From sequence record MN850574.1: a DNA stretch of 64,000 nt. One strand, given 5' to 3'. The DNA is from Escherichia phage kaaroe. The notes beneath the pieces were generated by a model that saw nothing but the letters and a program-made list of their open reading frames with translations, made no database searches and was not told the DNA's origin. Positions 24,503-24,958 of this stretch are shown piece by piece. The position numbers and the translations under genes were made by a program. Each line of letters starts with the position of its first letter. Position 1 is the stretch's first letter.

Positions 24503-24958
24503 ATGATTATTGATACTGTAAAGGGCGATCTCATCGCCCTGTTTAAACAAGGAAACGGTCATTTAATTCATGGTTGTAATTGTTTTCATACTATGGGCGC
24601 TGGTATTGCTGCGAAGATCGCGAAAGAGTTCCCGCAAGCGTTAGAGATTGACAAGCAAACTTCTCGCGGTAAGGTCGAAAAGCTGGGTGGGTTTAGTGTC
24701 TGGACGCATCAAGTTAATGGTTATAACTGGTGCGGGGTGAATCTCTATACCCAATTCCGACCGGGTCCAAATGCTGAATATGGTGCTATCCTGAAAGGAT
24801 TTGAGTCTCTCAATGATGTTTTTGAGGGTGCTATACAGCCTTTCTATATTCCTAAAATCGGTTGCGGTATCGGTGGCCTTGAGTGGGAATGTGTAGAAGA
24901 GATCATTAATATTGCTACTCCAGACATTAACATTGTGGTGGTTGAATATGACAAATAA
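24503..24958 (+). CDS. macrodomain protein, TARG1/DarG-like (ADP-ribose binding/hydrolase fold)
   Basis: VKGDLIALFKQGNGHLIHGCNCFHTMGAGIA and IPKIGCGIGGLEWECV align to remembered TARG1 motifs GDLFA..HCISEDCRMGAGIA and PRIGCGLDRLQWENV. Confidence 0.75.
   Translation: MIIDTVKGDLIALFKQGNGHLIHGCNCFHTMGAGIAAKIAKEFPQALEIDKQTSRGKVEKLGGFSVWTHQVNGYNWCGVNLYTQFRPGPNAEYGAILKGFESLNDVFEGAIQPFYIPKIGCGIGGLEWECVEEIINIATPDINIVVVEYDK

Follow-up and report, generated by a model that had tools for sequence, protein, structure and literature searches.

What does a T4-like phage of Escherichia coli gain from a free-standing macrodomain of 151 amino acids in which the catalytic residues of TARG1 and DarG are replaced? 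If the altered site is that of an enzyme, the protein could remove ADP-ribose that a host defense has put on phage DNA; if it is not, the protein may do no more than bind ADP-ribose or the toxin that attaches it. We examined the gene in its window, the whole stretch of 64,000 nucleotides of Escherichia phage kaaroe (MN850574.1) that was analyzed, and compared its product with macrodomains whose biochemistry is known.

Results

The region is 99.4% identical in DNA sequence to Krischvirus RB49, a T4-like phage of E. coli, and the RB49 copy of the protein is 100% identical to the product of the 151-aa open reading frame (ORF), which we call RB49 Tk.4 below. The gene bears the name tk.4 in the annotated relatives JSE and Phi1, and T4 Tk.4 (155 amino acids) aligns with the product over its full length with 44% identity (E = 3e-45). 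Upstream lie genes for an nrdC.11-like nucleotidyltransferase, several small ORFs and the genes for RegB, Vs.1 (an SLT transglycosylase) and Vs; downstream follow two small phage zinc-binding proteins, a membrane ORF, thymidine kinase, the rI antiholin and a DUF5856 protein. T4 has the order regB, vs.1, vs, tk.4, tk.3, tk.2, tk.1, tk, rI.1, rI, which is matched here by regB, vs.1, vs, tk.4, small ORFs, tk and rI, with synteny to JSE as well. Because full-length identity of 44% goes together with an identical gene order, the ORF is the ortholog of T4 tk.4 (adfM) by both sequence and position. The vs-to-tk block is a set of conserved, non-essential early genes common to T4 and RB49. A sequence-only reading of this DNA had described the surroundings as an accessory island with secreted and Cys-rich proteins; we reject that description, since RegB, Vs.1, Vs, Tk.4, the zinc-binding pair, Tk and rI are syntenic with T4 and JSE and form the ordinary early block.

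The gene itself is no newcomer. It has been annotated as tk.4 with a macro or A1pp motif since the genome papers of the RB49 era, and a 2006 comparison of T4-like genomes recorded orthologs of tk.4, each with an "A1pp phosphatase" motif, in 6 of 6, including that of RB43, which lacks alt (PMC1524935). Of 50,697 phage records searched with tblastn, 2,734 contain a relative; T4-like phages are among them, and so are numerous other large phages of Escherichia, Klebsiella, Salmonella, Pseudomonas, Vibrio and Acinetobacter.

Table 1. Positions, in the 64-kb window, of tk.4, of segments of its product and of other features mentioned in the text
Feature	Position	Strand	Remarks
nrdC.11-like ORF	21464..22162	+	Pfam RlaP, E = 1e-14
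Three consecutive small ORFs	22184..23016	+	64, 86 and 131 aa
vs	24128..24487	+	119 aa
Best sigma-70-like match in the region	24137..24165	+	TTGACA, 17 nt, TG-TATGAT; 11/12
Shine-Dalgarno-like GAGG	24491..24494	+	9-12 nt 5' of the tk.4 ATG; letters read directly, function presumed
tk.4/adfM ortholog	24503..24958	+	ATG start, 151 aa, single-domain macrodomain; stop codon included
Loop 1, H23-G-C-N26-C-F-H-T-M-G-A-G-I-A36	24569..24610	+	aligned to SCO6735 H24/N27 and DarG N22
Strand/loop, N80-L-Y82-T83-Q84-F-R-P-G88	24740..24766	+	profile alignments; Gln84 codon at 24752-24754
Phosphate-binding loop, P117-K-I-G120-C-G122-I-G124-G-L-E-W128	24851..24886	+	TARG1 and SCO6735 alignments
Downstream zinc-binding ORF	24948..25142	+	64 aa; Pfam Phage_zn_bind_2, E = 3.7e-23
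Second Cys-rich ORF	25115..25357	+	Pfam Phage_zn_bind, E = 9e-34
nrdD	38616..40478	+	single long ORF, 620 aa
DNA polymerase	55944..58652	+	single long ORF, 902 aa

The ATG of the 64-aa zinc-binding ORF lies within the 3' end of tk.4, and this 11-nt overlap, which is annotated identically in phage JSE, suggests translational coupling of the two genes. The second Cys-rich ORF overlaps its upstream neighbor by 28 nt, an arrangement that suggests coupling there too. A scan for promoters and terminators around tk.4 returned 19 promoter-like sites, not above the 16.9 +/- 3.7 expected from a shuffled background; the best sigma-70-like match falls just past the start of vs, and a transcript initiated there would begin within vs and run for about 335 nt before reaching tk.4.

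Several features of the neighborhood deserve mention in their own right. The product of vs, labeled a "valyl-tRNA synthetase modifier," starts with a signal-peptide-like segment, MKKLTIIAMIAMMFSAGALA, which is odd for a supposed modifier of a cytoplasmic synthetase; a Pfam search of the 119-aa product gave zero matches. In a transposon screen of T4, vs was the most depleted gene in minimal medium (10.1101/2025.11.20.689424). The nrdC.11-like ORF, which precedes tk.4 by about 2.3 kb, matches RlaP, an "RNA repair pathway DNA polymerase beta family" nucleotidyltransferase. The three small ORFs between it and regB carry a motif of the approximate form D-G-C-S-H-L-(D/R)-x-x-K-W-x-(L/I)-V, twice in the third of them, and look like a tandemly duplicated small-protein family. 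Farther along the window, nrdD and the DNA polymerase gene are each uninterrupted; in JSE each is annotated as two pieces, with a homing endonuclease within nrdD, and an endonuclease gene that JSE has near gp2/gp3 seems to be absent here (at about 11770-12243 of the window). Across the 64 kb, ARAGORN found no tRNA genes and no Rfam family reached its gathering threshold.

As to the fold, Pfam Macro (PF01661) matches the protein with 29.9 bits against a cutoff of 22 (E = 6e-7), and PHROG 335, which carries the label "phosphatase," matches it with E = 5.8e-63. A phmmer search of PDB sequences retrieved DarG of Mycobacterium tuberculosis (5m3i, E = 6.6e-8), BT1257, human TARG1/OARD1 (E = 2e-6), SCO6735 (5e3b) and yeast Poa1p, with E values from 7e-8 to 4e-6 for DarG, BT1257, TARG1 and SCO6735. 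An AlphaFold2 model built on an alignment of 101 relatives has a mean pLDDT of 97.3. With this model, Foldseek ranked TARG1 first in the PDB (E = 4e-11, TM 0.76-0.82, 28-29% identity), followed by Poa1p, DarG (TM 0.78-0.80), BT1257 and SCO6735; there were 196 matches at E <= 1e-3, of which the 50 listed are all either macrodomains or hydrolases designed on that fold. Coronavirus and alphavirus macrodomains scored far lower than TARG1, DarG, SCO6735 and Poa1p in phmmer, profile and Foldseek comparisons alike. These results confirm that the protein belongs to the ALC1/TARG1-like class of macrodomains and not to the MacroD, PARG or viral Mac1 type. The assignment to a TARG1/DarG-type macrodomain had been made earlier by eye, from motifs that are all present (G8-D9-L10, H23-G-C-N26-C27, M31-G-A-G-I-A36, I119-G-C-G122 and L126-E-W-E), and the two checks named for it, a profile search for the fold and a Foldseek comparison with TARG1 and DarG structures, both came out in agreement with it, as did PHROG, phmmer and the confident model. 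A match of this strength is not to be expected by chance.

The active site departs from that of the best-known members of the class. In the alignment with the family profile, K84 of TARG1 corresponds to Gln84 (L-I-T-K84-K-R against L-Y-T-Q84-F-R) and D125 to Gly124 (G-C-G-L-D125 against G-C-G-I-G124), just as had been noticed from the letters QFRPG and GIGG at these positions. In the phmmer alignment, Gln84 stands opposite the first Lys of FPTKKHW in M. tuberculosis DarG; this residue has chain index 90 and, since the conserved Asn N22 has index 32, corresponds to K80. T-Q-F is found in T4 Tk.4 as well. In loop 1, His23 corresponds to H24 of SCO6735 and H23 of Poa1p, and Asn26 to N22 of DarG and N27 of SCO6735.

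Conservation was counted over 101 relatives with identities down to about 40%. Position 84 is Gln in 100 of them and Lys in one; Thr83 is kept in 100, Cys27 in 99 and His23 in 97, and Asn80, Tyr82, Asn26, Gly24, Met31, Asp50, Pro117, Gly120 and Gly122 are invariant. Because Gln84 and Asn26 are retained to this extent, the Gln84/Gly124 site is not a decayed one and agrees with a role in catalysis. The single exception at position 84 is a metagenomic relative (P0020, 49% identical) that reads N-L-Y-T-K-Y and thus represents a natural Gln-to-Lys swap, with its Lys exactly at the position of the catalytic lysine of DarG and TARG1.

A macrodomain with such a site has been characterized in Streptomyces coelicolor. 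SCO6735 is an ALC1/TARG1-like protein in which both TARG1 catalytic residues are missing and Gln85 takes the place of the Lys. The enzyme removes thymidine-linked ADP-ribose (dT-ADPr) from DNA with a turnover above that of DarG or TARG1, and it shields cells from DarT (PMC9411070). The Q85A and Q85E substitutions abolish its activity and N27S nearly does so (PMC9411070). In the mechanism proposed from molecular dynamics simulation and mutagenesis, Gln85 is locked by Asn27 and hydrogen-bonds to the distal ribose at its ring oxygen, while cleavage is started by a bound water (PMC9411070). SCO6735 (5e3b), like RB49 Tk.4, consists of one free-standing macrodomain, lacks a DarT partner and has Gln for the catalytic Lys, but it is encoded by a bacterial, DNA-damage-induced gene and is only 23% identical by Foldseek. 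We obtained a direct alignment of the two with a 21-member profile whose N-terminal strand was trimmed, so that SCO6735 outranked five TARG1 entries. In it, H23, N26, Q84, G120 and G122 of RB49 Tk.4 correspond to H24, N27, Q85, G126 and G128 of SCO6735, whose chain numbering matches the residue numbers of the published work (PMC9411070). The SCO6735-type set of a Gln, a locking Asn, a nearby His and a G-x-G loop is therefore present in the phage protein, and it is near-invariant in the 101 relatives. Scores of the core profile were 59 bits for BT1257, 56 for SCO6735, 48 for TARG1 and 47.5, 44.5 and 38 for DarG. Among PDB sequences the family profile matches BT1257 (2fg1/2afc) best; this protein, whose PDB entry labels it as of unknown function, likewise carries Gln in place of the catalytic Lys. 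Two DNA-positioning lysines of SCO6735 are not kept: K34 is Ala33 here and Ala in 92 of 101 relatives, and K89 falls in a post-Gln loop that reads F-R-P-G here against Q-H-G-M-K. Because of these two differences, docking of the DNA or substrate may differ in detail from that in SCO6735.

The remaining relatives of known function differ from RB49 Tk.4 at the same position. DarG was the only match in both PADLOC and NCBIfam, where positions 2-141 of models of 329 and 338 positions were covered, which is the macrodomain half, at 50.5 bits against an equivalog cutoff of 250. DarG (Thermus aquaticus 5m31/5m3e, M. tuberculosis 5m3i) has the same fold class and the conserved Asn in common with RB49 Tk.4, and its substrate, the dT-ADPr made by DarT2, is the one on which we propose the phage protein acts too; in DarG, however, the key residue is Lys80, a C-terminal domain binds DarT, and darT is adjacent. 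Having Gln84 in place of Lys80, no DarT-binding C-terminal domain and no toxin gene nearby (its neighbors being vs and the zinc-binding ORF), RB49 Tk.4 was rejected as a member of DarG. Membership in TARG1 was rejected as well, given Gln84/Gly124 in place of the K84/D125 pair, even though human TARG1/OARD1 (4j5r, 4j5s) is the best structural match, is of the same size and also removes thymidine-linked ADP-ribose. Yeast Poa1p (6lfq-6lfu), a phosphatase that acts on Appr-1''-p, shares the H-x-C-N-C motif but contains additional insertions and has Ser where RB49 Tk.4 has Gln84; the roles of its H23 and S30 are taken from the titles of the PDB entries.

Another phage protein already bears the name AdfM. 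Gp104 of PhiKZ, a chimallivirus "AdfM," counters DarTG2 and enters the phage nucleus by import; in vitro it strips ADP-ribose from DNA that DarT2 has modified (PMC13309987). It is a phage-encoded free-standing macrodomain like RB49 Tk.4, but its sequence, translated from the construct in PMC13309987, is only 26% identical over 129 aa and keeps the DarG-type Lys (FPTKDNW). Identity of the two proteins was rejected on these grounds; they belong to different lineages of one fold class.

Discussion

Genetic evidence for the biological role comes from T4. In the HIDEN-SEQ preprint, tk.4 is the single significant hit of a T4 transposon screen on a DarTG2 host, a clean knockout of tk.4 makes T4 sensitive to DarTG2, and the gene receives the name adfM, for anti-DarT factor macrodomain (10.1101/2025.11.20.689424). 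The same text compares a model of T4 AdfM with M. tuberculosis DarG and goes no further than saying that removal of ADP-ribose from DNA by the enzyme "seems likely" (10.1101/2025.11.20.689424). The earlier suggestion that a free-standing phage copy could reverse DarT-type DNA ADP-ribosylation thus has genetic support from T4. It is essentially right and is explained by existing literature, in which the Gln-for-Lys site, too, is a described variant. The T4 and RB49 proteins share the motifs H-G-C-N-C-F-H-T-M-G and N-L-Y-T-Q-F-x-P-G-P-N, with Gln at the Lys position, although 56% of their residues are unlike, the phosphate loop reads GCGIGGLEW in RB49 and GAGIGKGNW in T4, and the DarTG2 phenotype is known from T4 only. 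What our analysis adds is small: T4-type AdfM bears a SCO6735-type Gln site and not the Lys site of DarG, a point that the passages of the HIDEN-SEQ preprint considered here do not mention.

We consider RB49 Tk.4 to be, probably, an anti-DarT2 factor, and we attach somewhat less confidence to the exact Gln-type chemistry; both the activity and the chemistry are inferred by analogy. In the model that we favor, Tk.4 would be expressed from the vs-to-tk block at an early stage of infection, would bind the ADP-ribose that the host toxin DarT2 puts on thymidines of single-stranded phage DNA, and would hydrolyze the N-glycosidic bond between ribose and thymine, restoring DNA that can be replicated. 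It would act as an orphan antitoxin that dispenses with the DarT-binding C-terminal domain of DarG. Neither the DarG Lys nor the TARG1 Lys/Asp pair would be used; in a site of the SCO6735 type, Gln84, held by Asn26, would position the distal ribose, and a bound water would start cleavage of the bond.

Since the TARG1 K84/D125 pair and DarG K80 are both missing, the protein might instead protect without catalysis, by sequestering ADP-ribosylated DNA or ADP-ribose or by binding and inhibiting DarT2 directly. The sequence-only reading had named this option in stating that the protein may bind rather than hydrolyze, or use another mechanism. Catalytically dead mutants of SCO6735, DarG and TARG1 do still inhibit DarT in vitro through direct interaction (PMC9411070), and because of this, part of the protection could be non-catalytic. 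As a full account we nevertheless regard it as unlikely: Lys-to-Gln is the signature of the active SCO6735 type, Gln occupies the Lys position in 100 of 101 relatives and is essential to a fast hydrolase in SCO6735 (PMC9411070), and neither the Asn nor the Gly-rich loops that characterize active macrodomains vary. It also seems implausible to us that lesions across a replicating genome could be soaked up stoichiometrically. A slightly smaller chance falls to the idea that Tk.4 acts as a phosphatase on ADP-ribose-1''-phosphate or hydrolyzes other small derivatives of ADP-ribose, such as RNA-repair by-products or NAD-derived immune signals and toxins. RefSeq and PHROG both say "phosphatase," after the A1pp motif, Poa1p, which has the H-x-C-N-C motif too, is one of the best matches by structure and by sequence, and a small-molecule role agrees with what Iyer et al. 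(2022) proposed in general for macrodomains of phages. The label, however, is the name of a domain model and does not derive from an assay, the key position of Poa1p is Ser and not Gln, and the phenotype of the T4 gene is specific to DarTG2, a DNA-modifying system (10.1101/2025.11.20.689424). A phosphatase-type activity could still coexist with the main activity of Tk.4.

Least probable of all, and in our judgment very improbable, is that Tk.4 reverses the ADP-ribosylation of host proteins or RNA by the phage's own Alt, ModA and ModB and so tunes host takeover. The Alt and Mod enzymes modify arginine, and TARG1-class macrodomains are not known to remove ADP-ribose from this residue. T4-like phages do encode ADP-ribosyltransferases, with a diverged alt in RB49 (PMC1524935), and SCO6735 and TARG1 also remove protein-linked ADP-ribose (PMC9411070). 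Against it stand the presence of tk.4 in all six T4-like genomes compared, RB43 with its missing alt among them (PMC1524935), and the DarTG2-specific phenotype of the T4 knockout (10.1101/2025.11.20.689424).

A bacterial member of the Gln family (P0105, from Pelagimonas, 44% identical) is encoded by a free-standing gene on the chromosome, with housekeeping genes around it, and no DarT neighbor was found at the Pelagimonas locus. Because this gene and SCO6735 are both free-standing and without DarT, there is a hint that the phage clade descends from free-standing Gln-type hydrolases and not from DarG. The wider proposal, that T4-type AdfM proteins form a clade of their own, very widespread in phages, of Gln-type (SCO6735/BT1257-like) hydrolases derived from free-standing bacterial genes and are not captured DarG antitoxins, is tentative, and we think it may well be wrong. 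If true, it would mean Lys-independent chemistry and perhaps broader substrates, for example uracil-linked ADP-ribose on RNA and protein-linked ADP-ribose, in which case one small enzyme could counter several ADP-ribosylating defenses beyond DarTG2.

The reading of Tk.4 as a Gln-type anti-DarT2 hydrolase would join two lines of research, the genetic identification of an anti-DarT2 factor in T4 and the biochemistry of the Gln-type SCO6735 in Streptomyces, and it would make Gln84 and Asn26, not a lysine, the residues of choice for mutation. It would also give a function to a gene which, across thousands of phage genomes, most databases still list as "hypothetical protein" or "phosphatase." For T4-like phages used in therapy or as models, Tk.4 probably decides whether they can grow on E. 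coli that carries DarTG2.
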